Shown piece after piece: positions 1 to 55,665 of a stretch of DNA of 64,000 nucleotides. The translations under genes were made by a program, and so were the position numbers. The notes below the pieces were generated by a model. It was not told where the DNA came from. It saw only the letters and a list, made by a program, of their open reading frames with translations, and made no database searches. Source of the stretch: an uncultured Bacteroidia bacterium (GTDB taxonomy: Bacteria; Bacteroidota; Bacteroidia; Bacteroidales; F082); assembly GCA_963759045.1 (NCBI GenBank), contig CAVWXM010000033.1, positions 6,452-70,451 of the forward strand, in the 5' to 3' direction. Every line of letters starts with the position of its first letter. Position 1 is the stretch's first letter.

Positions 1-2893
1 ATCACTTCATTCTCAAAAATGGCTTTTTGCCTATCTAAAAAATCAATATCGAATGAACCATCATTAATAAAAGGATTTATGGTGAAATATCCTACCCTGA
101 ACGAAGTCAGGTTTTGGAAAAAGTGTGTTCCCTGACTGGGATCAATGCGGTAGTTTTCCAGACCTGATTCAATGATTAACCGTGCAGCAGAAATTTGAGG
201 CCATTTAACCGGTATACCCAGCCATGGATCAGATGAACCCCAGCGGCCCGGGCCAATAAGTATATAGTTCTTCCCTTGTTCTAAAAACCGATGATTAATC
301 TCATCGATCATATTCACCGTTTCTTTATTTCTGGAAGCCTCAAAGTTTTGAGGACGTATATATACCACATCATAAATATCATTGATAATTCCATTTCCAA
401 GTGCTGATTCTGAAACGATCAATGCATCATCTTTTGAAATATTGGCTTTGTTAAGATTGATGCTTTCCTGCTTGGTTGCTATCGGACGAATTTGCAGCAT
501 ATTGAAAACAATGTTTCCGTTTTTTTCCGGTTTCAAATCCACAGCAAATTCAATTTCAACAGGATATCCCATTTCTTTTTCGCCTAGTGACAAAATTTTC
601 TGAAGAATGGCGGCCAATGGAAATGTATTGTGTTTTAATATATTGGAGAAGGTAATTAGCTTTTTTCCCTCATCGGCATAGCCATCCCTGATAATGTTGT
701 TCTGAAAGTCATAAGTTGAAGCAATCATTCTGATCGAATCATCCTTTTCTGCCTCCTTAATTCTAAGTTTCAATAACGATTTACTATCATCGGGTGAAGT
801 GGTAAATTCATCCGGGTTCAGACTTAATGCAAAGAAATGTTTCTGTGTTTCTTTAACTGCCATATCCGGATTTGATGTTTGCAAAACTTTTTTCGGATAT
901 TTCGGTGTAAACCTTAAAGACAGTCCTCCGTCAACAATATACTTTCCAAGTCCAAGTGCGATGCTGACAGTTCCATCTTCAGGTTTTTCGGGAGGTATTG
1001 GATAATAATCTATTGACCGTCCCACTCCAGACAGTGTTGGATAAAAACGGTCGCCATACTGACTTCCACAAACTGTTTGCATTACAATGGCCATCTTTTC
1101 CTCATCAATCACATTTGACGTAGCCTGCATATAGGCTTTACTGTCTTTGTAATATGCCGATGCATAAACAGCTTTAATGCTTGACTTTACCATTTCAAAC
1201 ATTCTATTAAGTTCATTCTCTAAGTAAGGCACCATATAAGTATTGTAAATTCCGGCAAAAGGTTGATAATGGGAATCTTCCAGTAAACTAGAAGATCTTA
1301 CAGCAAGTGGTCGATCAACGAAGGTGAGAATGGTATAAATATCATCATGTATCCTTTCAGGGAGATGGGCATTGAGAAAGTGTTCTAATATCTCAGTATC
1401 ATTCATGTCATCTGACATTGCAATTTGGTGCAATTGGTTTTCCTCCATGAATTCATCAAAAATATCGGTTCCAAGTACAACTGTTTTTGGAATTGTGATG
1501 CTTACTTTATCAAATTCATTATAGAGGTGATTCCGTTTAATCAATGAATCAAGAAATGCCAGGCCTCTTGCCTTACCGCCGATAGATCCTTCACCGATCC
1601 GTGTAATGGTAAAGTATTCGTCAAAACTTTCCCGTTTAAATTTAGAAATTACACCCCTGGCTTTTGATATCCTGAAATTTGCTATCGCCTCAAATACGAA
1701 TGTCCGTATTTCATAGCTATTTTTGAAATCTTCTCTTGTAAATTGCTTAAAAAGATTGGCAATTGGGAATAAAGCACGCGCTCTCAGCCATTTTGATATA
1801 TGATCCCGTTCGATATGATACATCAACGAATCCTCGGGAATCTGGAATATCTTTTCCTGCAAATCTTTTAAATCCCTGGCCCTGGCAACAATTTCATGCG
1901 TTTTAGGTTGTTTAAAAATAAAATCTCCAAAAGCAAAATATTCCTTAATAAATTCCCGTAATTCATAATTTAAACTCTTTGAGTTTTTGTCAATATAACC
2001 TACTCTTAATACCTTCGCTTTGGATTGATTTTCGGGATTTGATGATTGCAACAATAACGGGGTATATTTATTTTCGTTTTTTATGTGTCGAACCAGGCTA
2101 ATACCGGCATTTGTATCTTTTTTACCCCCTCTTTGATAGGTAATATCAGAAATTACACCCAATAAATTATGTTTGTACAGTTCATACAATTCTAATGCCT
2201 CTTCATAATTGGTAGCAAGTAAGATTTTTGGACGACCTCGGGCACGCATCATTTTTTGGTGCTCGTTCAATCCTTCCGTCATGAATATTTAGATTGCTTA
2301 AAAATGATTTTATAAATATTTGGGTAGGTAACTTGAATAAAACCGGATGTTGTCTTCAACAAGTAAAATGGTTTGAACTCCAACTTCCTGACATCGTGTT
2401 CCACGTTCATCTTATCCTCAATCAATTTAATGATTGCCAATAGAATGTCAGCATTACCAAGCCAACTAAAAATATAATCGATTGACCCGAGGTTAAGCTT
2501 CTCTATTTTCAGACTTACCTCACGTGAAAAAGGTGTGAGGACAACAATAGGAATGTCAGGATATTTTGATTTAATGTTGTCTGCCAGTTGGAAAGTATCT
2601 GTTTCTTCTACACTTAACATGGTTACAACAAGGTCAATATCTTCTTCCTTTAAAACTTTAAAGGCGTTTTTCTCAGAAGTAGTATTGATAAACCTTGGTG
2701 GAAATCGCAAATTCAATGACATATATTCATAAAAAATCTGCTCTTCAATACGTCCATCTTCCTCAATAATAAAAGCATCGTATACACTTGAAATAATTAA
2801 TACATTATAGATACGCTTTCGCATGATGTTCGAAAACGAAACTTCCTCGAAATACTTTTTCTGGGTTTCTATATCGGCTTTGGTTGGAATCAT
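1..2893 (-). pseudogene. Dual receiver-domain / PPDK_N (PEP-pyruvate-binding ATP-grasp) protein, left copy; 3' end runs off the window; N-terminal part frameshifted
   Basis: The ORF track gives 2279..2893 (204 aa, receiver-like). An unlisted open frame runs from ATG 2282 down to base 3; I checked the frame at 1439 and it reads ...NQLHQIAMSDDMNDTEILEH. It contains GGKARGLAFL (PPDK_N-like). Compared with the right copy there are 3 single-base indels in 2282..2400, including the TCATGA junction at 2279-2282. Confidence 0.65.
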
Positions 2894-3013
2894 TGGCTAT
2901 TGCTGTTGACTTGGAACAAAGATATGGATTAGATGGATATTGGTTACTAGATGGTTAATGGTTATTAGAAAAATGAATAACTCAATCAGCCTTTTGGACC
3001 TTCTATTTGATAA

Positions 3014-3964
3014 TTATTTATCATTTTCCTTAAACCATGCGATGGTTTGTTTAATTGTATCTTCTAAAGGAGTTTCAACAAAATCCGGAAAATCGCTACG
3101 AAGCTTTTTATCATTTAGTTCTACATTATTTTCAAACATATAATAGTTTTCTTTTAACTCCTTAATAACGGGCATGAACAATGACATCATATTCATTATC
3201 CATTTGGGCAGAACATTTACTTTATCAGGGCCGCCAGTTATCTGGCTTATTTGTTTTGCCAGATCTTTTACTGATGAAAAAACATGTCCGCCATAATTAT
3301 AATTTGAAAAGGCAGGCAAATTATTCTTTAAGCATAACAAATAAATCAATTTTGCTGCATCAGGTGTGTAAACAAACTGATGAGGAATATCAGCATTGAT
3401 CAACCAGTTGATGGCTTTATTCTTAGCAGCATTTCCAAATACCGGTTTGATTAAACCATTTGTCACATTTGGTCCGTAAAAATCAGGAAGCCGAATAAAA
3501 ATAACCTTGCATTTACTTGCTTCTACAGACGCTCTTAATAAATCAAATAATCTAAGTCTTATAATTCCTTTTTTGGTGGATGGTTGTGGAACCATATCTT
3601 CAGTAATTTGCTTCACATTGCCAAACTCGTAAATATTCCCGGGAAAAATAATTGTAGCCTTACTTTTGGTTGCAGCCTCAATTACATTCTGTGTAACCTT
3701 TTCCATGTTTTCTTCCCATTTATTGTAGGGATAATTGATGCCATGAAAAATGAACTTTTTATCTTTTGCAATCTCTTTCAACTTTGGCAAATCCATTGCA
3801 TCACCTTCTTCAATAATCAGCAAAGTATTTTCTCCAAAAAGTTTTAGTGCTTTCGCTTTATTCCTGACAAGTAAGGTGACAGGAATTTTTTCATCAAGTA
3901 GTGTTTGAGTAAATGCATAGCCGATGCTGCCTGTTGAGCCGGTTACAAGATATTTTGAAGTCAT
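3014..3964 (-). CDS. NAD(P)-dependent epimerase/dehydratase (SDR/NmrA-like) family protein, intact copy
   Basis: 316-aa ORF. N-terminal Rossmann motif VTGSTGSIGYAF. Collinear with the frameshifted right copy. Confidence 0.8.
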   Translation of the reverse strand: MTSKYLVTGSTGSIGYAFTQTLLDEKIPVTLLVRNKAKALKLFGENTLLIIEEGDAMDLPKLKEIAKDKKFIFHGINYPYNKWEENMEKVTQNVIEAATKSKATIIFPGNIYEFGNVKQITEDMVPQPSTKKGIIRLRLFDLLRASVEASKCKVIFIRLPDFYGPNVTNGLIKPVFGNAAKNKAINWLINADIPHQFVYTPDAAKLIYLLCLKNNLPAFSNYNYGGHVFSSVKDLAKQISQITGGPDKVNVLPKWIMNMMSLFMPVIKELKENYYMFENNVELNDKKLRSDFPDFVETPLEDTIKQTIAWFKENDK

Positions 3965-4049
3965 ATTTTTCTAATTTGAAAGATTCGAAAATCTCCCAAA
4001 AGTAAATAAAACGAACCTTTGATTTAGATATAGATTAGAAGTATCAATT

Positions 4050-5270
4050 TTATTTTTTGCAATTGATTTTATAAATAAAAAACAAAGACGATAAAATTAT
4101 TATCATAAATAGGATAAAGAATGGTTGAAAACCAAAATGTTCGATAATCCAACCTCCCAGTAAAGGGAAAAGTGCCGGTAGAATATTTCCTGCTCCGGCA
4201 ATTCCGGCATACAAGGCTCTATTTTCAGTTCCTGAAACCTCTAGCAAAACTCCATTCATTGAAATTGTATAGGCTGTGAATATAACACCTCCAATAAAAA
4301 AGATGACAATAAATGAAGGCATTGCGGGCGAAAGAAGAATAAAAAGCGGAAGCAAAAATGCCAATATTGAACTTCCGTATAACAGGTAACGATATTTATA
4401 TTTTTTTGCAAAGAAGAACAGGATAAATCCGGTGACTACACTACCTATTATTTTAAAAAGCAAGAACAAGCCAGTATCAGAACTTTCTGTGTGATAAAAC
4501 TCTTTTGCATACAGAATTACGAATGGAAGCAGGGCAATGCTAATACCCATTGTATTAATAAATCCCAGAAAATACTTTAACTTACTATTTTGTTTTAGCT
4601 CAGTTTTTATAAGCTGAAAAAAGTGATTTGGGTTTTTTACAGCCATCCTTGAAGGCGTTACTTCTTTGATGTTCCAGAAGCCGAATGATGCAACGAAGAG
4701 TGCACCAAAAGCAATTAAAAACATATATGCATAATTGGTAGGATATTCTGAAAGACTTAAAACTCTTTTAGCAAGCACAGCAGAAAAGAACAAGATTGTA
4801 CCAGTAATTACTTGCCTTACTGAAAAAAAAGACTTGCGTGAACTTTGCAAAATTGATTTACCTAAAATATCAGTATAACTTACGTTGGCAAAAGCTCCAC
4901 CAAAAGAGAAAATAGCGATAAGAATAAAGATGAGCCAAATGATACTTGATTCATCAATTAGCTGTGAAAACAAAAGCATAAGCCCAAGTCCGAGCAAAGA
5001 AAAAATTCTCGAGTTAATTCCCAGCAACAAAAACTTTTTCTTGAAATGATAATTGCTTATAAATGGAGCATAAACTAATTGGGTAAAACTTGAACCACCT
5101 AACATAATTGAAGTTAAAATTCCGACTTGAAAGGCGGTACCACCTGCGTCGACGAGCATCGCAGGAATAATTGTATCCACATCCATAAAAACTTGCGCAA
5201 GAGCCAAAAATCCGGCATGCCATAGCAGTGAATAAGAATTTCGTTTGGATATTTCCGGTGTCAGTTTCAT
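4050..5270 (-). CDS. MFS transporter, left copy
   Basis: 406-aa ORF that is hydrophobic throughout, with about 12 predicted helices by eye. 6 of 406 aa differ from the right copy. Confidence 0.8.
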   Translation of the reverse strand: MKLTPEISKRNSYSLLWHAGFLALAQVFMDVDTIIPAMLVDAGGTAFQVGILTSIMLGGSSFTQLVYAPFISNYHFKKKFLLLGINSRIFSLLGLGLMLLFSQLIDESSIIWLIFILIAIFSFGGAFANVSYTDILGKSILQSSRKSFFSVRQVITGTILFFSAVLAKRVLSLSEYPTNYAYMFLIAFGALFVASFGFWNIKEVTPSRMAVKNPNHFFQLIKTELKQNSKLKYFLGFINTMGISIALLPFVILYAKEFYHTESSDTGLFLLFKIIGSVVTGFILFFFAKKYKYRYLLYGSSILAFLLPLFILLSPAMPSFIVIFFIGGVIFTAYTISMNGVLLEVSGTENRALYAGIAGAGNILPALFPLLGGWIIEHFGFQPFFILFMIIILSSLFFIYKINCKK

Positions 5271-5423
5271 CTGTAACTCGTTTTAATTAATGCTTTTACT
5301 AACACCAGTAAATTCATACTATGCTACTTTACTAAAGCCTTTTACTGATAAATCAGCAATGATTATGACAAATCGAAGTATGAGAATTCTTCTGATCCAC
5401 ATAAAGTAATTACTAAATATGGT

Positions 5424-6608
5424 TTATTCAATTTTGTCCAAGGCCTGTTGCAAATCAATAATAAGATCATCAACATCTTCAATGCCGACCGAATAGCGGA
5501 CTAAACCATCTGTAATATGGGCAGCTAGTTTATCTTTTTTTGAAACACCTGCATGAGTCATTGAAGCGGGATGCTGGATTAAGGTTTCAACACCGCCAAG
5601 TGAAACCGCTAGTGTTGCCAGGTGAACATTATCCATCAGGATTTTACCTGCTTCGTATCCACCTTTAAGTCCAAAACTGATCATGCTGCCAAATCCATTC
5701 ATTTGCTCTTTTGCCAAATCATATTGCTCAAATGACTTTAATCCAGGATATTTTATCCATTCAACTTTAGGATGAGCCTCAAGGTATTCAGCAATTTTCA
5801 TTGCACTTTCCTGTGCTTTGTCAATTCGCAAAGATAATGTTTTTACACCCCTGATCACCATAAAAGCCTGATGGGGATCCATGTTCCCACCCATATATAC
5901 CATTGCTTTCCGGATTTTTTTGTATATTTCTTTGTCTTTGGTAATAATTGCACCGCCTACAATATCGGCATGGCCATTAATAAACTTTGTTAATGAATGC
6001 AGCACAACATCAGCCCCGAGGTTTAGTGGCTTTTGAAGATATGGGCTACAGAAAGTATTGTCAACACAAACCAGGATGTTGTGTTTATGTGCAATTTCAG
6101 ATGCTTTTTTGATATCGGTTAATTGTATTGTTGGATTAGCCGGCGTCTCGAGGTAAAGCAGTTTTGTATTTGGCCTGATTGTTTTTTCTAATAAGTCAAG
6201 GTCAGAAGTATCAATGTAGGAATATTCAACCCCAAACTTTGAAAAATGGGTTTCCATCACCCCGCGGCTTGGACCATAAACGGCTCCTGTGCTTATCATG
6301 TGGCTACCTTGTTTTAAAAGTGACATATACACTGTACTAACAGCTGCCATTCCGGATGCCAGTGCGATGCCCCTATATCCGTTTTCCAACTCTGCCAGTT
6401 TATTCTCAAGCACTTCAATGGTTGGGTTACCAATGCGGGTGTAAATATAGCCGTTCTCTTTACCGGCAAATAAATCTGCACCATGCTGCGCACTTTTAAA
6501 TGAAAAAGTAGACGTTTGATATATAGGTGTAACTGCACTTCCAAAAGCATCATTAAAATCGCCTGCATGGATTAATTTTGAATTAAATCCTAAATTCTTT
6601 GTTTCCAT
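5424..6608 (-). CDS. Methionine gamma-lyase / Cys-Met-metabolism PLP-dependent enzyme, left copy
   Basis: Full-length match to the Cys_Met_Meta_PP architecture. PLP-lysine motif SLTKFINGH. The likely start is METKNLG (the track ORF starts 11 codons upstream, at 6641). Confidence 0.88.
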   Translation of the reverse strand: METKNLGFNSKLIHAGDFNDAFGSAVTPIYQTSTFSFKSAQHGADLFAGKENGYIYTRIGNPTIEVLENKLAELENGYRGIALASGMAAVSTVYMSLLKQGSHMISTGAVYGPSRGVMETHFSKFGVEYSYIDTSDLDLLEKTIRPNTKLLYLETPANPTIQLTDIKKASEIAHKHNILVCVDNTFCSPYLQKPLNLGADVVLHSLTKFINGHADIVGGAIITKDKEIYKKIRKAMVYMGGNMDPHQAFMVIRGVKTLSLRIDKAQESAMKIAEYLEAHPKVEWIKYPGLKSFEQYDLAKEQMNGFGSMISFGLKGGYEAGKILMDNVHLATLAVSLGGVETLIQHPASMTHAGVSKKDKLAAHITDGLVRYSVGIEDVDDLIIDLQQALDKIE

Positions 6609-7028
6609 TATTATTGATTTTATTTTTAATAAATCTTTCAATTTTATTTATAATTATTTTCGGTGCCCGCATCGGTTTTCTGGAATCGATATCTACAAAA
6701 GCCACCGTGCTTTCTGCTTTATTAATCAGTTCATTATTTTGGTTTCGAACTTCGTGATGAAACAACATTCTGCTACATGGCATTTTATCCAGATGGGTTT
6801 TTATAGTGATGATATCATCATAGAAAACTGGTTTTAAGTATTTTGTTTTTAAGTAGATAACCGGCAACATGATGTTGTGGTTTTCCAACTCTTTGTCACA
6901 AATACCGAGTTCCCGAAACAATTCTGTTCGGCTTATATGGTAATATTTTGCATAATTTCCGTGATATACATAACCCATTTATCAACCTCATCATACCTTA
7001 TCCTGATTTGATTTTTGTATGTAATCAT
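6583..7028 (-). CDS. YbgC/4HBT-type acyl-CoA thioesterase, left copy, with a 1-nt N-terminal homopolymer frameshift
   Basis: 131-aa ORF MGYVYHGNYAKYYH... The right copy reads MITYKNQIRIRYDEVDKMGYVYHGNY. The left copy has gttgataaatggg where the right has gttgataaaatggg (A3 versus A4), which breaks the first 17 codons. Confidence 0.75.
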
Positions 7029-7052
7029 GCTTTTTAATTAAATGCTTTTTAA

Positions 7053-7340
7053 ACTGTTGCTTTGGAAGCAGAATACTTCCTTATTTATGAAGATGATAAA
7101 GATGAATTATCCCATTTTGACAACCGCGATTCTGCCAATGATGCGCATGGTGCCGGACCTAAAACAGCTCAAAAATTGTTTGAATACAAACCTGATGTTT
7201 TAATTACGGGAAATGGTCCCGGAGGAAATGCAGCCACAGTGCTTGAAAAAGCAGGTATGGGAATTTTCATCGGAGCTAATGATATGACTGTTAAAGAAGC
7301 TTTTGAAGCTTTCAAAAGCAACAGGTTAAAAAGCATTTAA
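7053..7340 (+). CDS. NifX/NifB-like (dinitrogenase FeMo-cofactor-biosynthesis domain) small protein, 5'-truncated at the duplication junction
   Basis: The 92-aa ORF ...AEYFLIYEDD...GAGPKTAQKLFEYKPDVLITGNGPGGNAATVLEKAGMGIFIG...VKEAFEAFKSNRLK fits the roughly 115-aa NifX/NifB-type domain. About 25 N-terminal residues are missing, there is no ATG, and a stop lies at 7050-7052. Confidence 0.6.
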   Translation, partial: TVALEAEYFLIYEDDKDELSHFDNRDSANDAHGAGPKTAQKLFEYKPDVLITGNGPGGNAATVLEKAGMGIFIGANDMTVKEAFEAFKSNRLKSI

Positions 7341-7349
7341 TTAAAAAGC

Positions 7350-7796
7350 ATGATTACATACAAAAATCAAATCAGGATAAGGTATGATGAGGTTGATAAA
7401 ATGGGTTATGTATATCACGGAAATTATGCAAAATATTACCATATAAGCCGAACAGAATTGTTTCGGGAACTCGGTATTTGTGACAAAGAGTTGGAAAACC
7501 ACAACATCATGTTGCCGGTTATCTACTTAAAAACAAAATACCTAAAACCAATTTTCTATGATGATATCATCACTATAAAAACCCATCTGGATAAAATGCC
7601 ATGTAGCAGAATGTTGTTTCATCACGAAGTTCGAAACCAAAATAATGAACTGATTAATAAAGCAGAAAGCACGGTGGCTTTTGTAGATATCGATTCCAGA
7701 AAACCGATGCGGGCACCGAAGATAATTATAAATAAAATTGAAAGATTTATTAAAAATAAAACCAATAATAATGGAAACAAAGAATTTAGGATTTAA
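7350..7796 (+). CDS. YbgC/4HBT-type acyl-CoA thioesterase, right copy (intact)
   Basis: 148-aa ORF. IRIRYDEVDKMGYVYHGNY is typical of the hotdog-fold 4HBT family. Confidence 0.82.
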   Translation: MITYKNQIRIRYDEVDKMGYVYHGNYAKYYHISRTELFRELGICDKELENHNIMLPVIYLKTKYLKPIFYDDIITIKTHLDKMPCSRMLFHHEVRNQNNELINKAESTVAFVDIDSRKPMRAPKIIINKIERFIKNKTNNNGNKEFRI

Positions 7797-8955
7797 TTCA
7801 AAATTAATCCATGCAGGCGATTTTAATGATGCTTTTGGAAGTGCAGTTACACCTATATATCAAACGTCAACTTTTTCATTTAAAAGTGCGCAGCATGGTG
7901 CAGATTTATTTGCCGGTAAAGAGAAGGGCTATATTTACACCCGTATTGGTAACCCAACCATTGAAGTGCTTGAGAATAAACTGGCAGAGTTGGAAAACGG
8001 ATATGGGGGCATAGCACTGGCATCCGGAATGGCAGCTGTTAGTACAGTGTATATGTCACTTTTAAAACAAGGTAGCCACATGATAAGCACAGGAGCCGTT
8101 TATGGTCCAAGCCGTGGGGTGATGGAAACCCATTTTTCAAAGTTTGGGGTTGAATATTCCTATATTGATACTTCTGACCTTGACTTATTAGAAAAAACAA
8201 TCAGGCCAAATACAAAACTGCTTTACCTCGAGACGCCGGCTAATCCAACAATACAATTAACCGATATTAAAAAAGCATCTGAAATTGCACATAAACACAA
8301 TATCCTGGTTTGTGTTGACAATACTTTCTGTAGCCCATATCTTCAAAAGCCACTAAACCTCGGGGCTGATGTTGTGCTGCATTCATTAACAAAGTTTATT
8401 AATGGCCATGCCGATATTGTAGGCGGTGCAATTATTACCAAAGACAAAGAAATATACAAAAACATCCGGAAAGCAATGGTATATATGGGTGGGAACATGG
8501 ATCCCCATCAGGCTTTTATGGTGATCAGGGGTGTAAAAACATTATCTTTGCGAATTGACAAAGCACAGGAAAGTGCAATGAAAATTGCTGAATACCTTGA
8601 GGCTCATCCTAAAGTTGAATGGATAAAATATCCTGGATTAAAGTCATTTGAGCAATATGATTTGGCAAAAGAGCAAATGAATGGATTTGGCAGCATGATC
8701 AGCTTTGGACTTAAAGGTGGTTACGAAGCAGGTAAAATCCTGATGGATAATGTTCACCTGGCAACACTAGCGGTTTCACTTGGCGGTGTTGAAACCTTAA
8801 TCCAGCATCCCGCTTCAATGACTCATGCAGGTGTTTCAAAAAAAGATAAACTAGCTGCCCATATTACAGATGGTTTAGTCCGCTATTCGGTCGGCATTGA
8901 AGATGTTGATGATCTTATTATTGATTTGCAACAGGCCTTGGACAAAATTGAATAA
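7771..8955 (+). CDS. Methionine gamma-lyase / Cys-Met-metabolism PLP-dependent enzyme, right copy
   Basis: Same architecture as the left copy. 4 of 405 aa differ across the track ORFs (S9P, N63K, R90G, K/N in YKKI versus YKNI). Confidence 0.88.
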   Translation: METKNLGFNSKLIHAGDFNDAFGSAVTPIYQTSTFSFKSAQHGADLFAGKEKGYIYTRIGNPTIEVLENKLAELENGYGGIALASGMAAVSTVYMSLLKQGSHMISTGAVYGPSRGVMETHFSKFGVEYSYIDTSDLDLLEKTIRPNTKLLYLETPANPTIQLTDIKKASEIAHKHNILVCVDNTFCSPYLQKPLNLGADVVLHSLTKFINGHADIVGGAIITKDKEIYKNIRKAMVYMGGNMDPHQAFMVIRGVKTLSLRIDKAQESAMKIAEYLEAHPKVEWIKYPGLKSFEQYDLAKEQMNGFGSMISFGLKGGYEAGKILMDNVHLATLAVSLGGVETLIQHPASMTHAGVSKKDKLAAHITDGLVRYSVGIEDVDDLIIDLQQALDKIE

Positions 8956-9108
8956 ACCATATTTAGTAATTACTTTATGTGGATCAGAAGAATTCTCATA
9001 CTTCGATTTGTCATAATCATTGCTGATTTATCAGTAAAAGGCTTTAGTAAAGTAGCATAGTATGAATTTACTGGTGTTAGTAAAAGCATTAATTAAAACG
9101 AGTTACAG

Positions 9109-10329
9109 ATGAAACTGACACCGGAAATATCCAAACGAAATTTTTTTTCACTGCTATGGCATGCCGGATTTTTGGCTCTTGCACAAGTTTTTATGGATGT
9201 GGATACAATTATTCCTGCGATGCTTGTCGATGCAGGTGGTACCGCCTTTCAAGTCGGAATTTTAACTTCAATTATGTTAGGTGGTTCAAGTTTTACCCAG
9301 TTAGTTTATGCGCCATTTATAAGCAATTATCATTTCAAGAAAAAGTTTTTGTTGCTGGGAATTAACTCGAGAATTTTTTCCTTGCTCGGACTTGGGCTTA
9401 TGCTACTGTTTTCACAGCTAATTGATGAATCAAATATCATTTGGCTCATCTTTGTTCTTATTGCTATTTTCTCTTTTGGTGGAGCTTTTGCCAACGTAAG
9501 TTATACTGATATTTTAGGTAAATCAATTTTGCAAAGTTCACGCAAGTCTTTTTTTTCAGTAAGGCAGGTAATTACTGGTACAATCTTGTTCTTTTCTGCT
9601 GTGCTTGCTAAAAAAGTTTTAAGTCTTTCAGAATATCCTACCAATTATGCATATATGTTTTTAATTGCTTTTGGTGCACTCTTCGTTGCATCATTCGGCT
9701 TCTGGAACATCAAAGAAGTAACGCCTTCAAGGATGGCTGTAAAAAACCCAAATCACTTTTTTCAGCTTATAAAAACTGAGCTAAAACAAAATAGTAAGTT
9801 AAAGTATTTTCTGGGATTTATTAATACAATGGGTATTAGCATTGCCCTGCTTCCATTCGTAATTCTGTATGCAAAAGAGTTTTTTCACACAGAAAGCTCT
9901 GATACTGGTTTGTTCTTGCTTTTTAAAATAATAGGTAGTGTTGTCACCGGATTTATCCTGTTCTTCTTTGCAAAAAAATATAAATATCGTTACCTCTTAT
10001 ACGGAAGTTCAATATTGGCATTTTTGCTTCCGCTTTTCATTCTACTTTCGCCCGCAATGCCTTCTTTTATTGTCATCTTTTTTATTGGAGGTGTTATATT
10101 CACAGCCTATACAATTTCAATGAATGGAGTTTTGCTAGAGGTTTCAGGAACTGAAAACAGAGCCTTGTATGCCGGAATTGCCGGAGCAGGAAATATTCTA
10201 CCGGCACTTTTCCCTTTACTGGGAGGTTGGATTATCGAACATTTTGGTTTTCAACCATTCTTTATCCTATTCATGATAATAATTTTATCGTCTTTGTTTT
10301 TTATTTATAAAATCAATTGCAAAAAATAA
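9109..10329 (+). CDS. MFS transporter, right copy
   Basis: 406-aa ORF. In the sampled 330 nt (9931..10260 versus the left arm), all 6 nucleotide differences are synonymous. Confidence 0.8.
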   Translation: MKLTPEISKRNFFSLLWHAGFLALAQVFMDVDTIIPAMLVDAGGTAFQVGILTSIMLGGSSFTQLVYAPFISNYHFKKKFLLLGINSRIFSLLGLGLMLLFSQLIDESNIIWLIFVLIAIFSFGGAFANVSYTDILGKSILQSSRKSFFSVRQVITGTILFFSAVLAKKVLSLSEYPTNYAYMFLIAFGALFVASFGFWNIKEVTPSRMAVKNPNHFFQLIKTELKQNSKLKYFLGFINTMGISIALLPFVILYAKEFFHTESSDTGLFLLFKIIGSVVTGFILFFFAKKYKYRYLLYGSSILAFLLPLFILLSPAMPSFIVIFFIGGVIFTAYTISMNGVLLEVSGTENRALYAGIAGAGNILPALFPLLGGWIIEHFGFQPFFILFMIIILSSLFFIYKINCKK

Positions 10330-10414
10330 AATTGATACTTCTAATCTATATCTAATTCAAAGGTTCGTTTTATTTACTTTTGGGAGATTTTCGAATCTTT
10401 CAAATTAGAAAAAC

Positions 10415-11366
10415 ATGACTTCAAAATATCTTGTAACCGGCTCAACAGGCAGCATCGGCTATGCATTTACTCAAACACTACTTGATGAAAAAATTCCTGT
10501 CACCTTACTTGTCAGGAATAAAGCGAAAGCACTAAAACTTTTTGGAGAAAATACTTTGCTGATTATTGAAGAAGGTGATGCAATGGATTTGCAAAAGCTG
10601 AAAGAAATTGCAAAAGATAAAAAGTTCATTTTTCATGGCATCAATTATCCCTACAATAAATGGGAAGAAAACATGGAAAAGGTTACACTGAATGTAATTG
10701 AGGCTGCAACCAAAAAGTAAGGCTACAATTATTTTTCCCGGTAATATTTACGAGTTTGGCAATGTGAAGCAAATTACGGAAGATATGATTCCTAAACCAT
10801 CCACCAAAAAAGGAATTATAAGACTTAGATTATTTGATTTATTAAAAGCGTCTGCAGAAGCAAGTAAATGCAAGGTTATTTTTATTCGGCTTCCTGATTT
10901 TTACGGACCAAATGTGACAAATGGTTTAATTAAACCTGTATTTGGAAATGCTGCCAAGAAAAAGGCCATCAACTGGTTGATCAATGCTGATATTCCTCAT
11001 CAGTTTGTTTACACACCTGATGCAGCAAAATTGATTTATTTGTTATGCTTAAAGAATAATTTGCCTGCCTTTACAAATTATAATTATGGCGGGTGTGTTT
11101 TTTCATCAGTAAAAGATCTGGTAAAACAAATAAGCCAGATAACTGGCGGCCCTGATAAAGTAAAGGTTTTGCCCAAATGGATAATGAATATGATGTCATT
11201 GTTCATGCCCGTAATTAAGGAGTTAAAAGAAAACTATTATATGTTTGAGAATAATGTAGAACTAAATGATAAAAAGCTTCGTAGCGATTTTCCGGATTTT
11301 GTTGAAACTCCTTTAGAAGATACAATTAAACAAACCATCGTATGGTTTAAGGAAAATGATAAATAA
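10415..11366 (+). pseudogene. NAD(P)-dependent epimerase/dehydratase family, right copy, frameshifted
   Basis: Split into 10415..10720 and 10698..11366. The indel lies in an A-run at about 10712-10717 (A5 versus A4 in the left copy). About 12 of 316 aa differ from the left copy. Confidence 0.7.
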
Positions 11367-11482
11367 TTATCATATGGAAGGTCCAAAAGGCTGATTGAGT
11401 TATTAATTTTTCTAATAACCATTAACCATTAACAAATATCCATCTAATCCATATCTTTGTTCCAAGTCAACAGCAATAGCCA

Positions 11483-14400
11483 ATGATTCCAACCAAAGCC
11501 GATATAGAAACCCAAAAAAAGTATTTCGAGGAAGTTTCGTTTTCGAACATCATGCGAAAGCGTATCTATAATGTACTAATTATTTCAAGTGTATACGATG
11601 CTTTTATTATTGAGGAAGATGGACGTATTGAAGAGCAGATTTTTTATGAATATATGTCATTGAATTTGCGATTTCCACCAAGGTTTATCAATACTACTTC
11701 TGAAAAAAACGCCTTTAAAGTTTTAAAGGAAGAAGATATTGACCTTGTTGTAACCATGTTAAGTGTAGAAGAAACAGATACTTTCCAACTGGCAGACAAC
11801 ATTAAATCAAAATATCCTGACATTCCTATTGTTGTTTTCACACCTTTTTCACGTGAGGTAAGTCTGAAAATAGAGAAGCTTGACCTCGGGTCAATCGATT
11901 ATATTTTTAGTTGGCTTGGTAATGCTGACATTCTATTGGCAATCATTAAATTGATTGAGGATAAGATGAACGTGGAACATGATGTGACGGAAGTGGGGGT
12001 TCAAACCATCATCCCTTGTTGAGGACACACATTCGGTTTTATTCCAGTTACCTTCCAAATATTTATAAAATCATTTTTAAGCAATCTAAATCATTCATGA
12101 CGGAAGGATTAAACGAGCACCAAAAGATGATGCGTGCCCGAGGCCGACCAAAAATTTTACTTGCCACCAATTATGAAGATGCATTGAACTGTATGAACTG
12201 TACAAACATAATTTATTGGGTGTTATTTCTGATATTACGTATCAAAGAGTGGTGAAAAAAGATACAAATGCCGGTATTAGCCTGGTTCGGCATATAAAAA
12301 ACGAAAATAAATATACCCCGTTATTGTTGCAATCATCAAATCCCGAAAATCAATCCAAAGCGAAGGTATTAAGAGTAGGTTATATTGACAAAAATTCAAA
12401 GAGTTTAAATTATGAATTACGGGAATTTATTAAGGAATATTTTGCTTTTGGAGATTTTATTTTTAAACAACCTAAAACGCATGAAATTGTTGCCAGGGCC
12501 AGGGATTTAAAAGATTTGCAGGAAAAGATATTCCAGATTCCCGAGGATTCATTGATGTATCATATCGAACGGGATCATATTTCAAAATGGCTGAGAGCAC
12601 GTGCGTTATTCCCAATTGCCAATCTTTTTAAGCAATTTACAAGAGAAGATTTCAAAAATAGCTATGAAATACGGACATTCGTATTTGAGGCAATAGCAAA
12701 TTTCAGAATATCAAAAGCCAGGGGTGTAATTTCCAAATTTAACCGGGAAAGTTTTGACGAATACTTTACCATTACGCGGATCGGTGAAGGATCTATCGGC
12801 GGTAAGGCCAGAGGCCTGGCATTTCTTGATTCATTGATTAAACGGAATCACCTCTATAATGAATTTGATAAAGTAAGCATCACAATTCCAAAAACAGTTG
12901 TACTTGGAACCGACATTTTTGATGAATTCATGGAGGAGAACCAATTGTACCAAATTGCAATGTCGGATGACCTGAATGATACTGAAATATTAGAACACTT
13001 CGTCAATGCCCGTCTCCCTGAAAGGATACACGATGATATTTATACCATCCTCACATTCGTTGATCGACCACTGGCTGTAAGATCTTCGAGTTTATTGGAA
13101 GATTCCCATTATCAACCTTTTGCCGGAATTTACAATACCTATATGGTGCCTTACCTAAAGGATGATCTTAACAAGATGTTTGAAATGGTGAAGTCAAGCA
13201 TTAAGGCTGTTTATGCATCGGCATATTACAAAGACAGTAAAGCCTATATGCAGGCTACGTCAAATGTGATTGATGAGGAAAAGATGGCCATTGTAATGCA
13301 AACAGTTTGTGGAAGCCAGTATGGCGACCGTTTTTATCCAACACTATCTGGAGTGGGACGGTCAATCGATTATTATCCAATACCTCCCGAAAAACCGGAA
13401 GATGGAACTGTCAGCATCGCACTTGGACTTGGAAAGTATATTGTTGACGGAGGATTGTCCTTAAGGTTTACACCGAAATATCCAAAAAAAGTTTTGCAAA
13501 CATCAAATCCGGATATGGCAGTTAAAGAAACACAGAAACATTTCTTTGCATTAAGTCTGAACCCGGATGAATTTACCACTTCACCCGATGATAGTAAATC
13601 GTTACTGAAACTTAGAATTAAGGAGGCAGAAAAGGATGATTCGATCAGAATGATTGCTTCTACCTATGACTTCCAAAATAACACCATAAGGGACGGTTAT
13701 GCTGATGAGGGATTAAAACTAATTACCTTCTCCAATATATTAAAACACAATACTTTTCCATTGGCCGCCATCCTTCAGAAAATTTTGTCACTGGGCGAAA
13801 AAGAAATGGGATATCCTGTTGAAATTGAATTTGCTGTGGATTTGAAACCGGAAAAAAATGGCAACATTGTTTTCAATATGCTGCAAATTCGTCCGATAGC
13901 AACCAAGCAGGAAAGCATCAATCTTAACAAAGCCAATATTTCAAAAGATGATGCATTGATCATTTCAGAATCAGCACTTGGAAATGGAATTATCAATGAT
14001 ATTTATGATGTTGTATATATACGTCCTCAAAACTTTGAGGCTTCCAGAAATAAAGAAACGGTGAATATGATCGATGAGATCAATGATCGGTTTTTAGAAC
14101 AAGGGAAGAACTATATACTTATTGGCCCGGGCCGCTGGGGTTCAGCTGATCCATGGCTGGGTATTCCGGTTAAATGGCCTCAAATTTCTGCTGCGCGGGT
14201 GATCATTCGAAGTCAGGTCTCGAAAATTACCGCATTGACCCCAGTCAGGGAACCCACTTCTTCCAGAACCTGACTTCGTTCCGGGTGGGATTTTTCACCA
14301 TCAATCCATTTATTAATGATGGTTCATACGATCTTGGGTTCTTAGCATAGGCAAAAAGCCATTTTTGAGAATGAATTGGTAAGGCACTAGGTTTTAAAAG

Positions 14401-14485
14401 ACCAATGACTATCATGATTGATGGAAAACAAAACCTGGGGGTTATACTAAAACTTGGTGTTTCGGTCAAACCAGGATTAGAATAA
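11483..14485 (+). pseudogene. Dual receiver-domain / PPDK_N protein, right copy, with at least 5 frame disruptions
   Basis: Fragments are 11483..12022, 12016..12255 and 12216..14273, plus a shifted C-terminus. Relative to the left copy: +2 nt near 12020, -1 nt near 12190, +2 nt near 14205, +1 nt near 14345, and at least one more before the end. The end coordinate is approximate. Confidence 0.7.
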
Positions 14486-14495
14486 AGTATAATAA

Positions 14496-15586
14496 ATCAA
14501 ACAATTGAAGTGAGTGATCCTGTTAATAAATTAGCAGTCAAACAAGAGGTGAATTGGAAGCACTCCAAGTAAATCACCGGGTTTAAATTTTTTGAGAAAT
14601 TGTTCAGGCATCTTTACGATACCATGTTCCTGCGAGATTGATGAAACGTAAGCCCCCGGAATAGGATCCGACCACCCTTTATCAGTAAGATTGACGACAT
14701 ATCCAAAAAGTTTAAAATCATTGTCAGCAGCAATAAATTCTTTTGAAAAATGAACGGCACCACCATAAACAACTATTTCATTCCTTTCGGGATAGACTGA
14801 AACAACAGGGCAGGCAACAGCTACTGCAATATCGTCCAATTGACAGGAACCTATATGATATTGCATCACATCATAATATACAAAATTGCCCGGCCGTATT
14901 TCATCAAATCCACTTAAATCATCTGCAAGGCTGCAGGAGGGTGAATCCCCATAAGAAATGATAATGTCAGGAAAATGAGCAATATATTTTTGTTTTAATG
15001 TTTGCAGTTTTATTTGTGCATCATCCATGATCGAAAGAATCTCTTCTTTCCCTTTTGCTGAATAAGTGTTACCGGCATGGTTCAGAAAGCCTTTGAATTG
15101 AAGTTTGTCAGATTTGTTGCATACAGATACGATGTCATCAATTGCTTTCGTTTGTTTCGGTAATAGACCAGAACGATGATATCCATTGTCAATTTCAATG
15201 AACAGACCAACTTTATTCGTTAATTCAGAGGCTAATTTTGTTGTTGAAAATACTGAATCAACAATTAAATTCAGGTTGATTTTACCTGATAACTCCCTGA
15301 TATTTTCTATTTCCAATAAGTTAACAGGAAAGGCAATGGTGATATCATTCCAGAGATGATCAGCAAAATATTGTGCCATTGAAACAGAAGATACAGTGAT
15401 TTTATCAACCCCGTTTTTCCTGAATATTTCGGCAATATCGGTTGACTGGTGGGTTTTAAAATGAGGCCTGAAAATTAATTTGCTTCGGTTTGCTTTTTCA
15501 AGCATCCGGTTGATATTATTTTCAACAATTGACTTGCTGATAATCAGTGTTGGCTTGGTAAACATTTGTTGATGATATAAAAACAA
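14496..15586 (-). CDS. D-TA/DSD1-family PLP enzyme (alanine-racemase N-terminal fold; D-threonine aldolase / D-serine dehydratase-like)
   Basis: The FRPHFKTHQS PLP-lysine motif is present. The track ORF ends at 14531 with ...PIHLLFDC. Removing one c from cacctc restores PIHSCLTANL..., which fits the family, with a stop at 14496-14498. Confidence 0.75.
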
Positions 15587-15637
15587 ATGTAATGAAGATT
15601 AAGGGTTTTGTTGAAATTAAGAACAGTTAGATATGAA

Positions 15638-16090
15638 TTACCTAACAACTTTTACACGCACGGCAGTTGGCCCTTTTTGTCCCATTTCAACTTCAAAACT
15701 TACCAGGTTGCCTTCTTTGATTTCTTCAAGTACATTGTTTACATGTACAAAAACACTTTCCTGTGTTTCTGAATCCCTGATAAATCCAAAACCTTTTGAA
15801 TCGTTAAAAAAGGATACTGTTCCTTTGCGAATAGGATCCATCTCTTCAGCAGCAGCTCGTTTGGGTATGCTGATTTCAATATCTTCTAATTTGGCCTTTT
15901 TCTTCTTGGCAGGATCCGGGGGAGTATCAGTCAACATTCCATTTTCATCAACATAAGCAATCATGTCGTCAAGATTGCCACTTTTTTCATTTTCTTTCCT
16001 GGCTAATCTTTTCTTTTCTTTTTCTTTTCTCTTTTTTTCTTTTTTATTTCTTACTTCTTTTTTATTGAATGTTTCCTGTGATCTTCCCAT
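15638..16090 (-). CDS. Cold-shock-domain protein with a Lys/Glu-rich N-terminal extension
   Basis: The C-terminal 65 aa, GTVSFFNDSKGFGFIRD...VFVHVN...VSFEVEMGQKGPTAVRV, form a canonical CSD with RNP1-like KGFGFI. Confidence 0.9.
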   Translation of the reverse strand: MGRSQETFNKKEVRNKKEKKRKEKEKKRLARKENEKSGNLDDMIAYVDENGMLTDTPPDPAKKKKAKLEDIEISIPKRAAAEEMDPIRKGTVSFFNDSKGFGFIRDSETQESVFVHVNNVLEEIKEGNLVSFEVEMGQKGPTAVRVKVVR

Positions 16091-16413
16091 AAATTGTTTT
16101 TACCTTAAATTGTTTAGCATTTTAATTGTGATTTAAAAAGGTGGCCTGCAATAGTAATTCGTAGCACAAATTCTTAAACCTGAAATTTTTACAAAAGTAG
16201 GCTTTTATTCTCAGAAATTGACGATTCATGTGTTGATTTACAGTTGAGAAATTAAGAAATGCACATTTAATCAGTGTTTTGTGTTAAGCTATGCTCAATA
16301 ATTAAGTTGACAAAAAGTCATTACTTAGTTTACGTTAATTCATTTTCAAAAATTGAAGGATGAGGAAATAAAATCAATTAGGATATTTTAAGAATGAATT
16401 GTTCAGTTAGTAG

Positions 16414-16421
16414 TATCTTTG
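16414..16421 (+). promoter_or_regulatory. Putative Bacteroidota sigma-A -7 box (TATCTTTG)
   Basis: Exact TAnnTTTG match 72 nt upstream of the desaturase ATG. Confidence 0.35.
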
Positions 16422-16492
16422 TTGACGAAATACTGCCAGGAGATAACTAACTAAATATCCTACCACCACCTCTTAGGCTAAATTTTAAGCCT

Positions 16493-17671
16493 ATGAGAAC
16501 TATCGCTGCTGAGCAAATCAATACTAAAAAACGAACACCTTTACCTAAGGTAACATTTGGAAAATATAAGCAAAAAAAATTTCATAAAGAGGTCAAAGAC
16601 AGGGTTGATCAATATTTTATTTCTGGTAATATTTCTAAAAGTGCCAATGTTGAAATGGTTCTCAAAACAATATTAATTTTATTGGGTTGGGCATGTACTT
16701 ATTTCATTATTCTTTCAAACTTAGTAAGCCCTTTATGGATGTTTGTACTTGCCTTATTTCATGGTTTTTTTACAGCAATGATCGGCATGAACATAGCACA
16801 TGATGCCATTCATGGTGCCTATACCAATAATTCGAAATTAAACAAAAGGATAGGTGTGATTTTTAACCTGATTGGTGCGAATGATTATGTTTGGGGTATA
16901 AGCCATAACATCGTTCATCATACCTATACCAATATACCACAACATGATGAAGACATTCATCAAGTGCCGATCCTTCGCATGGAACCCACACAAAAACTTT
17001 GGTGGATTCATCGGTTTCAATACATCTATGCTTTTGTTATTTATTGTTTTGCAACGATCTCCTGGGTTTTTGCAAAAGATTACGTCAAATTTTTTCAGCG
17101 GCAACTGGGGGGGCATTATAGAAAAACTTTCCCAAGAAAGGAAATTTTTCGCTTATTTATTTATAAAGCCGTTTATTATTCTGTTTTCCTGGTTATCCCA
17201 ATGCTGTTGATTAAACTGCCCTGGTATTGGATTCTATTTGGTTTTGTATCTGCTCATTTTGTGGAGGGTTTCATCCTTGCCGTGATATTCAGCTTAGCAC
17301 ATGTGATTGAAGAAACTGATTATCCTTTTCCTGGCCCCGATAATAAAATAGAGATGCCATGGGCAAATCTGCAGATGCACACGACTGCTAATTTTGCTGT
17401 GAAAAACCGCACAGTAAATTACATTTGTGGAGGGCTTAATTTACAGATAGTACATCATTTGTTTCCCAAATTATGCCATGTGCATTACCCCAAATTAGCT
17501 GAAATTGTTAAACAAACAGCCATGGATCATAAGCTGCCAAATATTGAATATAAAACCTTTTTCGGAGCCCTTGCCTCACATACACGTATGTTAAAAAAAT
17601 TCGGTACTTCTTCAATAATGCCCACTCAGAATAGAAGATGTACAACACCAATTGTTAAATTAACGAGGTGA
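16493..17671 (+). CDS. Membrane fatty-acid desaturase, front-end (delta-6-like) type, no cytochrome b5 fusion
   Basis: Three His boxes are present: HDAIH, HNIVHH and QIVHH (Q replaces the first H in box 3). N-terminal TM helices are present. Confidence 0.85.
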   Translation: MRTIAAEQINTKKRTPLPKVTFGKYKQKKFHKEVKDRVDQYFISGNISKSANVEMVLKTILILLGWACTYFIILSNLVSPLWMFVLALFHGFFTAMIGMNIAHDAIHGAYTNNSKLNKRIGVIFNLIGANDYVWGISHNIVHHTYTNIPQHDEDIHQVPILRMEPTQKLWWIHRFQYIYAFVIYCFATISWVFAKDYVKFFQRQLGGHYRKTFPRKEIFRLFIYKAVYYSVFLVIPMLLIKLPWYWILFGFVSAHFVEGFILAVIFSLAHVIEETDYPFPGPDNKIEMPWANLQMHTTANFAVKNRTVNYICGGLNLQIVHHLFPKLCHVHYPKLAEIVKQTAMDHKLPNIEYKTFFGALASHTRMLKKFGTSSIMPTQNRRCTTPIVKLTR

Positions 17672-17730
17672 CAAGTTCATAATTCAACAATGATAACTTC
17701 TTAGTACGGACGTTCTGAAAATGTCTTTTT

Positions 17731-18810
17731 TTATGCAAACGGATAGTCAGTATAACCTTTTTCACCAGGTGTATAAAATGCATCGAAATCTGGTTGATTA
17801 AGGGGTATATTATTTTCCAATCGGTATACCAGGTCAGGATTTGCAAGAAACGTCTTTCCGAACGCTACAAGATCACCTTTTCCTTCTTCTATTACCAGAT
17901 TTGCTTTTTCTTTATCAGAAAAACCGCCGCTTGCTATAATAGTATGGCCAAACGCATTTTTGATTTTTGACTTAACGGATTCAGTAACTTCAGGAGCACC
18001 CATCGAGGAATGATCAACTATATGTATATAGGCGAGATTTAATTTTCCAAGCTCCCTGGCAATATATTCGAAAGTATCTTCCAGACCCTCGAATGTTTCC
18101 ATATCGTTAAACGCTCCGAATGGGGAAAGCCTGATAGCAGTTCTGTCGGGTCCAATGGCTTTTGAAACTTTTTTTGCTACTTCAATGGCAAAAAGGGTCC
18201 TGTTTTCAAGCGAGCCACCATAATGATCGGACCTTTTATTGGATGCTGTATTAATAAATTGATCGATGAGGTAACCATTTGCACCGTGAAGTTCGATTCC
18301 GTCAAAACCGGCTTCAATAGCATTTTTGGCAGCGTCAACATATTCATTTTGTGTTTTTTCAATATCCTGGATGGTCATTTCTTTTGGAACAGGATAAGCT
18401 TGCATACCTTTTTGATCAGTCCACATTTCACCACTTAAGGCTATTGCCGAAGGGGCTATTACTTCCGCACCTTTTTCCATGTTGTCAGGATGCGAAACCC
18501 GGCCCGTATGCATCAATTGCATAAACATTTTACCACCTTTTTGATGGACTGCCTTTGTAATTAATTTCCATCCTTCGGTTTGATCCCGACTAAAAATTCC
18601 AGGAATCCTGGGATAGCCAAGTCCGTTTGGTGAAGGGGCAGTCCCCTCAGTAATAATTAATCCTGCATCTGAACGTTGTTTGTAGTATTCAGCCATTAAT
18701 TCGTTTGGAATATTATTTATAGCCCTTGACCGAGTCATTGGAGCCATAACAATTCTGTTTTTCAATTCAATGTTTACTAGTTTAAATTTGTTAAAAAGCT
18801 TCATCGCCAT
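17731..18810 (-). CDS. Old Yellow Enzyme family NADH:flavin oxidoreductase (alkene reductase)
   Basis: 359 aa. VMAPMTRSRA, HGANGYLIDQF and similar motifs are typical of the OYE/NemA family. Confidence 0.9.
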   Translation of the reverse strand: MAMKLFNKFKLVNIELKNRIVMAPMTRSRAINNIPNELMAEYYKQRSDAGLIITEGTAPSPNGLGYPRIPGIFSRDQTEGWKLITKAVHQKGGKMFMQLMHTGRVSHPDNMEKGAEVIAPSAIALSGEMWTDQKGMQAYPVPKEMTIQDIEKTQNEYVDAAKNAIEAGFDGIELHGANGYLIDQFINTASNKRSDHYGGSLENRTLFAIEVAKKVSKAIGPDRTAIRLSPFGAFNDMETFEGLEDTFEYIARELGKLNLAYIHIVDHSSMGAPEVTESVKSKIKNAFGHTIIASGGFSDKEKANLVIEEGKGDLVAFGKTFLANPDLVYRLENNIPLNQPDFDAFYTPGEKGYTDYPFA

Positions 18811-19047
18811 GATAGTTTGTATTATTAGTAATTATACAAGAAACAATCTTGAGATTAATATTGTTTAAATTCAGATATTAAAAAATATGATTTTTGAGTA
18901 TGAAAGTAAAAAGGGGATAAAAATACACTATTTAATTCTAGTGAAAATAGACTGAAATATTGAATGAATATACTCCAGATTACTTGTTATTCTTAAACTT
19001 AGTTCTTGTCCGAAGCTGTGTTTATTCTTCTTAAGTAGAAAACTCTC

Positions 19048-19995: not shown

Positions 19996-20013
19996 GATTT
20001 TTTAGTTCTTATT

Positions 20014-25538: not shown

Positions 25539-25611
25539 TAAGCAAATGTTTTATTGATATCAAATATAATCAATGCAGTTCAATCAAAAATCAAACAAGC
25601 TGGAAACTTAT

Positions 25612-25619
25612 TATCTTTG
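25612..25619 (+). promoter_or_regulatory. Putative -7 box (TATCTTTG) inside the track ORF, implying a downstream start
   Basis: Exact TAnnTTTG match. An in-frame TTG at 25647 gives MSYQFHILKNGIRIIHRE, a typical M16 N-terminus. Confidence 0.4.
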
Positions 25620-25646
25620 CTCGCTAAAATACTGAACATCTGTAAT

Positions 25647-40243: not shown

Positions 40244-42174
<1,931 letters not shown>

Positions 42175-54246: not shown

Positions 54247-54256
54247 TGGGAATTAA

Positions 54257-54853: not shown

Positions 54854-55006
54854 GTTGATGAATTTTAAACAGCAAATTTATAATTTTTTTAACAAGGAAG
54901 TTGGAATTATTTGTTATTTGTTGGCCTGATAATTAAGTGATTAAATTTTATTACTCAATAGGCTGTTCTTTATGTAAAGTTTATCTTTAAATCCTAGTAA
55001 AATTGT

Positions 55007-55456: not shown

Positions 55457-55665
55457 TGGCTAAAAGTAGACAAAAACAAAGAATTTATATAGTTGTTTAC
55501 ACGTTATGCAATACAAGTTGCAAGGCGTTGATTCGTGAAATGATGAAAGAATTTAATAAAACCTGTAACATGCTCCTCGCACCGATAGTCATATTACAAA
55601 AGTTTGATAGGTTTAATACATAATGGTTTTGTATTTTTCAGGGTAATTGAACACCTCAAATTAAG

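Follow-up and report, generated by a model that had tools for sequence, protein, structure and literature searches.

A head-to-head inverted repeat in a contig of an uncultured Bacteroidia bacterium: two real haplotypes in what is most likely an artefactual arrangement

The stretch of DNA analysed here (the window) comprises 64,000 nucleotides of contig CAVWXM010000033.1 from an uncultured Bacteroidia bacterium (assembly GCA_963759045.1, positions 6,452 to 70,451). Its first 14,380 positions hold a large head-to-head inverted repeat, in which two copies of the same set of genes are transcribed outward from a short single-copy core. The original prediction, made from the sequence without database searches, claimed that the reverse complement of 1..7072 is collinear with 7307..14377. 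A repeat search of the whole 64-kb window and an alignment bore this out. The search returned collinear inverted blocks at 35–7067 and 7311–14345 with 88–99% complementarity and, besides this pair, no further repeat of at least 60 nt. Global alignment of 1..7189 with the reverse complement of the following sequence paired position 1 with 14380 and position 7071 with 7307, and the pairing arms in the window are the reverse complement of 1..7072 and 7307..14380. The alignment contained 232 substitutions and about 15 indel events. The two arms are real diverged alleles, but their arrangement is most likely an assembly artefact and not a real biological feature. The features of the locus are as follows.

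1..7072, minus strand: left arm, haplotype L; its genes run leftward and it continues past the window start.
1..2893, minus strand: receiver–PPDK_N fusion gene, left copy; frameshifts at about 2286, 2322 and 2388; C-terminus off the window.
3014..3964, minus strand: NAD-dependent epimerase/short-chain dehydrogenase-reductase (SDR), left copy; intact, 316 amino acids (aa).
4050..5270, minus strand: MFS transporter, left copy.
5424..6608, minus strand: Cys/Met-metabolism pyridoxal-phosphate enzyme of the Met gamma-lyase family, left copy (P0002).
6583..7029, minus strand: 4HBT thioesterase, left copy; frameshifted (T3 versus T4 at 6977).
7061..7073: fold-back junction; the letters ...AAACTGTTGC close the left arm, and TTTGGA(-AG)AGCAGAATAC, which is the NifX-like gene from codon ~19 onward, comes next.
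7073..7306, plus strand: single-copy core, 234 bp.
7307..19995, plus strand: right arm, haplotype R; contiguous with the core and the remaining window; its partner is visible to 14380 and, judged from contig proteins, would reach at least 19734.
7350..7796, plus strand: 4HBT thioesterase, right copy; intact, 148 aa; identical to the gene in the Logan contigs described below.
7771..8955, plus strand: Met gamma-lyase family enzyme, right copy (P0001).
9109..10329, plus strand: MFS transporter, right copy.
10415..11366, plus strand: epimerase/SDR, right copy; split by an extra base in a T/A run at ~10712–10716 (T5 versus T4 near 10716).
11483..14485, plus strand: receiver–PPDK_N fusion gene, right copy; frameshifts at about 12013, 12028, 12185, 14208, 14212, 14346 and 14389.

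Both arms had been described as carrying a five-gene module. The genes are indeed present in both, but the "receiver" and "PPDK_N" open reading frames (ORFs) are pieces of a single frameshift-split gene of ~1000 aa, which is unbroken in L107 and P0124 (1003 aa). Both arms have breaks in this gene, at sites that differ but fall within 100 nt of each other (the three left-hand sites, and ~12013 and ~12028 on the right). The fusion of a receiver domain (PF00072) with PPDK_N (PF01326) is kept at 990–1010 aa in many assemblies, mostly Bacteroidota where named (homologues P0124–P0241), and these proteins are variously labelled "phosphoenolpyruvate synthase" or "CheY-like". From its domains, the product looks like an uncharacterised response-regulator-fused phosphoenolpyruvate/pyruvate-binding protein.

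The arms were predicted to be at least 7 kb long, and proteins of the contig indicate that they are longer. The left arm is cut by the window edge: P0122, the left-arm PPDK_N product of 795 aa, runs 38 residues (35 whole codons) beyond position 1, and its tail beyond the window start matches the right arm as far as 14482. The lyase alleles P0001 and P0002 are both known solely from one NCBI/ENA contig of 210,009 bp. By exact-sequence cluster look-ups, four genes to the right of the visible repeat (14531–19995) have second, slightly different copies on this contig.

14531–15586: D-Ser-dehydratase-like; second copy P0243 and P0245, protein identity 98.2% and 98.6%.
16493–17671: fatty-acid desaturase; second copy P0247, protein identity 96.7%.
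17731–18810: flavin oxidoreductase of the Old Yellow Enzyme family; second copy P0249, protein identity 98.9%.
19048–19995: ORF of 315 aa, family unassigned; second copy P0251, residues 88–167, protein identity 100%.

Because P0122 passes the window start and four further genes are duplicated on the same contig, each arm appears to measure at least ~12.4 kb (7307 to at least 19734), and the left arm would extend at least 5.35 kb to the left of the window start. The last right-arm ORF ends at 19995, and the repeat was traced outward to 19,734. In the same look-ups a second copy was not seen for 20014–20763, 21021–21830, 28776–29945, 35191–36441 and 56464–57468, although an identical copy on the same contig would escape detection in this way. 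The window copy of the D-Ser-dehydratase-like protein (minus strand) ends ...PIHLLFDC, and P0245 (the other copy on the same contig) and P0244 (a Logan relative) end ...PIHSCLTADLL(K/N)HALIV; this C-terminal difference is a further frameshift error within the right arm.

The 234-bp core is present and single copy, as had been claimed, but it is not a neutral spacer: it is an internal part of a 5'-truncated NifX-like gene (Nitro_FeMo-Co, PF02579) on the plus strand. The ORF at 7062–7340 matches profile positions 11–93 of 94. It is without the first 20 codons (MKIAFTTKGTKWDSVMDPRF...) of a 112-aa gene, which are present in P0276, P0277 and L002, and it falls short of a complete PF02579 domain (~94 positions, in a protein of ~111–112 aa). 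The junction truncates a NifX-like gene that is otherwise undecayed. At the junction site the normal gene, as found in Logan contig L163, reads CCACGGTTTGGAAGAGCAGAATAC, and the right arm in reverse complement reads CCTGTTGCTTTTGAAAGCTTC. Exact microhomology is limited to 3 nt, TTT, within an imperfect match of 8/10 (TTTGGAAGC versus TTTTGAAAGC). Here the window is short of one AG from an AGAG run, which is likely another consensus error. A 9-bp hairpin (GCTTTTGAA-GCT-TTCAAAAGC) adjoins the right breakpoint and is not the crossover. The breakpoints, 7071/7072 and 7306/7307, lie 234 nt apart; with the switch set at 7064 the offset becomes 247 nt.

To examine the locus outside this contig, we used Logan contigs. 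Three proteins of the window recur in Logan contigs of one run, ERR12040029. At 99.8% identity each, L164 aligns to window 19490–21467 (3 mismatches, 1 gap) and L165 to 54102–58975 (9 mismatches); ERR12040029 thus samples the population of the window. A third contig of this run, L163 (1473 nt), holds the complete 112-aa NifX-like gene, with the core identical to the window at 234/234 positions, preceded by 46 nt of upstream DNA and followed by a thioesterase exactly as in the right arm and by the beginning of the lyase. L163 crosses the position of the fold-back junction into NifX-like codons 1–20 and the upstream DNA with no break. These contigs indicate that the normal arrangement exists with the R haplotype. 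At the other end, L164 is unbroken from 19490 to 21467, that is, past 19,734, the outermost traced point of the repeat.

A fourth contig of ERR12040029, L167 (2264 nt), contains an intact receiver segment and an intact epimerase of 316 aa, without the extra base of the right arm. Of 80 variable sites, L167 has the right-arm base at 46, the left-arm base at 30, a private base at 2 and a three-way difference at 2. The corresponding numbers for L163 are 17 variable sites, 13 as in the right arm, 4 as in the left arm, and none private or three-way. Together, the two contigs agree with one arm or the other at 93 of their 97 variable sites and contain 2 private variants, implying that the read set of ERR12040029 is essentially biallelic and the arms complementary. 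Random mixed polishing of the arms was also considered and is ruled out, since the arms are complementary at these 93 of 97 sites and both oppose the Logan contig at only 2.

The original prediction suggested looking for the single-copy arrangement in related genomes, and it was found there: in L002, L083, L161, L162 and L166 the locus is single copy within ±10 kb. In L002, L161, L162 and L166, a NifX-like homologue of 111–112 aa lies directly upstream of the thioesterase and the lyase, often after a DUF5320 gene. Scans for the lyase in contigs of GTDB-representative genomes and of metagenomes gave best matches of 90–92% aa identity and revealed no sister strain. Two contigs from other samples, L168 and L169, represent strains that are 97.2–97.3% identical to the window; therefore, allelic divergence of the size seen between the arms is ordinary between strains of this lineage. 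P0255 and P0259 were considered as proof of two strains outside the repeat in the same sample, and this failed because both come from other runs.

The neighbourhood of a DUF5320 small protein, the NifX-like protein, the 4HBT thioesterase and the Met gamma-lyase-family enzyme recurs in L002 (6805-11185), L161, L162, L163 and L166 (9374-10006). Ahead of it in L002 lie ATPases of the Mrp/MinD 4Fe-4S type, an assignment made by eye. The organisms with the DUF5320–NifX-like neighbourhood show no obvious nitrogenase context. L166 is a 15.5-kb contig from an ENA metagenome assembly (ERZ25039514, contig_19537, a Flye-style name) that has a related thioesterase and a lyase in at least three pieces. The N-terminus of its thioesterase resembles that of L002 and the remainder is identical to the window, so this gene is either a recombinant allele or a consensus mixture.

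We next consider the nature of the differences between the arms. The counts of aa differences given in the original prediction were exact (lyase 4, MFS transporter 6, thioesterase 2, epimerase 12). It also reported a synonymous bias in a 330-nt stretch of the MFS gene and proposed a full arm alignment with the ratio of nonsynonymous to synonymous divergence (dN/dS) per gene. This alignment was made, and the bias extends to all genes: pooled over six genes there are 122 synonymous and 59 nonsynonymous differences over 1389 synonymous and 5154 nonsynonymous sites, giving an overall dN/dS of 0.13. Per gene, dS ranges from 0.027 (thioesterase) to 0.179 (the PPDK_N part), and the lyase pair has a dS of 0.035 and a dN/dS of 0.12. 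Third codon positions hold 119 of the 181 coding differences. Because dN/dS is this low and third positions are in excess, whereas noise is blind to codon position, the arm substitutions are genuine diverged alleles shaped by purifying selection, beyond read noise.

This bears on the simplest explanation of the geometry, a fold-back of a single template (a multiple displacement amplification chimera, a missed adapter or an unsplit template/complement read) with arm differences that are noise. The fold-back geometry and the error-prone consensus with its homopolymer indels (see below) would suit it, and yet it would have to produce 232 substitutions with a dN/dS of 0.13 and a transition to transversion ratio of 121:74, and both alleles recur in independent contigs. 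We regard it as next to impossible in this form; as a full explanation it is refuted, in agreement with the claim that the divergence is real and neither noise nor a single-template fold-back, and it survives only as a possible origin of the junction.

The indels tell a different story from the substitutions. Frameshifting indels in the arms, which the original prediction did not mention, behave like consensus errors. Outside the repeat, dnaK (40244–42174, plus strand) is split into at least five ORF pieces, and a peptidase M16 gene (25554-26880, plus strand) and a DUF3822 gene (53376-54246, minus strand) are each in two pieces. Window position 21028 has an extra T relative to the independent contig L164. 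In addition, every arm frameshift that is covered by Logan contigs is missing there. Since dnaK and other genes outside the repeat are broken too and independent contigs are without the covered arm frameshifts, the frameshifts can be attributed to consensus errors. The consensus is thus prone to indel errors across the contig, resembling a lightly polished long-read assembly, and its gene calls are unreliable. The same observations rule out pseudogenisation with complementary loss after a duplication.

The age of the junction can be compared with that of the arms. Compared with the normal-arrangement haplotype, the core shows 100% and the right arm 99.7% identity, whereas divergence between the two arms is 1–5% (dS 0.03–0.18). 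The arms had thus diverged long before the junction formed, and the junction did not come about by one arm being copied into the other. Fold-back copying alone, in vivo or in vitro, is insufficient because the arms diverged before the join, which unites two pre-existing haplotypes. That DNA of two strains was physically joined in inverted orientation at the same locus, with 3 nt of homology to go by, is far-fetched; a computational join is easy to explain.

Considering these results, it is rather probable that the head-to-head repeat arose when a fold-back chimeric read or a mis-join entered an error-prone metagenome assembly of long reads, and that reads of two strains were then sorted onto the copies. 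An uncultured Bacteroidales/Marinilabiliales organism would have been present in the sample as two close strains, or at least as two haplotypes, ~1–5% apart at this locus. As far as visible, both haplotypes would be single copy, in the order NifX-like, thioesterase, lyase, MFS, epimerase, receiver–PPDK_N and onward. During an indel-error-prone assembly of long-read type, a fold-back join would have read one strand and then its complement ~234–247 nt apart, so that the contig was capped at NifX-like codon ~19–21 by a second, inverted copy at least 12.4 kb long. With the locus present twice in the draft, reads of each haplotype would have been sorted to the best-matching copy, and polishing would then have fixed one real allele set per copy. 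We infer the sequencing platform, the chimeric read and the sorting of reads; the repeat and its extent, the allelic differences, the error-prone consensus and the normal arrangement in an independent contig are observations. Of the two alternatives offered in the original prediction, an assembly join of strain haplotypes is the one favoured, on the basis of L163, the young join and the error-prone consensus, and a paralogous inversion-duplication is not.

Several points weigh against this explanation. The single-copy gap is 234 nt, compared with almost no gap in a classic template/complement fold-back, and slightly exceeds the default breakpoint distance of 200 bp used for calling fold-back reads, although cases with extra sequence between the segments have been reported (PMC12870357). 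ERR12040029 is only probably the sample or read set behind the contig, judging from the matches above. Along the Logan contigs, 59 R and 34 L alleles alternate in near-random order (runs test p=0.59), and the two alleles should therefore be of similar abundance. Blocky haplotype switching, as a sign of unequal strain abundance, was dropped because of the same test. Outside the visible repeat, the Logan contigs differ from the window by only 0.18% (13 differences, of which the one at 19645 lies within the probable arm extension), although these contigs were chosen by exact protein match and are biased toward low divergence. Equal allele abundance and low divergence outside would follow automatically from two copies in one genome.

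These points raise the possibility of a genuine head-to-head inverted duplication with a 234-bp spacer in the chromosome of part of the population, with arms that are diverged copies (one of them, for example, from a sister lineage) and are selected or partly gene-converted. Complementarity of the arms at nearly all polymorphic sites would be expected in this case, as would the balanced alleles and the low polymorphism outside the repeat. Substitutions per 500 nt number 3–8 beside the centre and up to 24–28 at the window edge, and such a pattern, with divergence lowest near the centre (1%) and greater outward, could be produced by gene conversion at the centre of a palindrome. Recombination between inverted arms merely flips the spacer, and the structure need not be lethal. 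Nevertheless, a monotonic gradient from a conversion centre was not upheld, because the second copies beyond 14.5 kb are 96.7–100% identical at the protein level and the outermost is 100% identical. L163 of the same population holds the unbroken normal arrangement with the full NifX-like gene. If fold-back genomes matched the L alleles in abundance, a branch in the k-mer graph would be expected at the core and L163 should end there, which it does not; a one-genome model is not easily squared with this contig. Furthermore, the core and the right arm match the normal haplotype, and a fold-back on the same molecule could not yield an arm that is 1–5% diverged and shaped by selection. Neither allele nor the junction occurs in any other assembly among billions of proteins, the exact microhomology is only 3 nt, and in bacteria, palindromes that are long and nearly perfect and have a short spacer are uncommon and unstable. 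We therefore consider a genuine duplication unlikely. The same doubt applies to its specific form, a real palindrome of at least 12.4 kb per arm whose arms are two alleles (dS up to 0.18) under purifying selection, such as a sister-strain copy captured by illegitimate recombination and coexisting with the normal form, for which the chance seems small. Should the palindrome be real, its stable, diverged 12-kb arms around a 234-bp spacer would make it an unusual structure for a bacterial chromosome and a natural test of palindrome tolerance and gene conversion.

Another possibility is that two real diverged copies of the ~12-kb segment exist, the second at another locus or replicon, and that the assembler wrongly joined them in inverted orientation at the NifX-like gene. 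Equal allele abundance, low polymorphism elsewhere and the normal arrangement in L163 would all be accounted for. An independent context for the second copy was not found among the contigs compared, while the segment consists of ordinary single-copy-type genes with one copy in relatives, and the strains at ~97% in other samples (L168 and L169) suggest that allelic variation of this size is normal in the lineage. This scenario appears improbable, more so than a genuine duplication.

If a fold-back mis-join of two haplotypes is the correct explanation, a public metagenome contig contains about ten false "paralogues" and one falsely truncated gene, and estimates of duplication and contamination would be inflated. 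It also calls for caution in that a dN/dS well below 1 between copies is no proof of biological duplication where strains co-occur, since real alleles can be sorted onto a false duplicate.

The structure can be compared with several known systems. Plastid inverted repeats, Y-chromosome palindromes and the terminal inverted repeats of Streptomyces are kept by gene conversion, typically with far less than 1% divergence, and occur in every member of a lineage. They resemble the repeat described here in having gene-bearing inverted arms at the kilobase scale. In contrast, the arms here are 1–5% diverged, and relatives and the same population are single copy.

Natural fold-back events copy the same molecule, so that the arms begin identical, and such duplications are generally unstable. 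Like bacterial tandem inversion duplications and the inverted duplications of yeast origin-dependent inverted-repeat amplification (PMC4689423), the repeat has head-to-head arms, a short single-copy loop and a junction in ordinary sequence. Unlike them, its arm divergence (dS 0.03–0.18) is older than the junction, and a convincing short inverted repeat was not found at the switch point.

A closer likeness is to the fold-back chimeric reads of nanopore and PacBio sequencing and the hairpin contigs that result from them, in which segments of one locus from opposite strands are joined with breakpoints at most a few hundred bases apart, as is the case here (PMC12870357; PMC13141652). Fold-back reads make up 1–4% of long-read genomic DNA reads and can tangle assembly graphs (PMC12870357), and ligation-prepared nanopore libraries contain 0.18–7.33% inverted-repeat chimeras (PMC13141652). 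As in such artefacts, the join bears no biological signature, cuts a gene and has 3 nt of exact microhomology in an error-prone assembly, and it is contradicted by an independent contig, L163, that probably stems from the same sample. The differences are that the gap is slightly above the calling default, that the chimeric read itself is presumed, and that the arms are two real haplotypes with 232 substitutions between them and not one molecule. Because of this last difference, a fold-back alone does not account for the structure, and sorting of haplotypes has to be assumed as well.

Uncollapsed haplotypes are a known origin of false duplications (Ko et al. 2022, PMC9516828). In such cases both allelic versions are kept and mimic recent paralogues with intact-looking genes ("false gene gain"), and the same is seen here: the differences between the copies are real segregating alleles, judging from the synonymous bias, the 93 of 97 sites and the ~97% strains elsewhere, and the locus occurs once in relatives and, in L163, in the same population. 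The published cases concern diploid vertebrates and mostly separate or tandem haplotigs, whereas here putative co-occurring bacterial strains are involved and the inverted copy is fused at a fold-back. Taken together, two documented classes of artefact in combination fit the structure: a fold-back join, presumably by way of a chimeric read, and an uncollapsed-haplotype false duplication.

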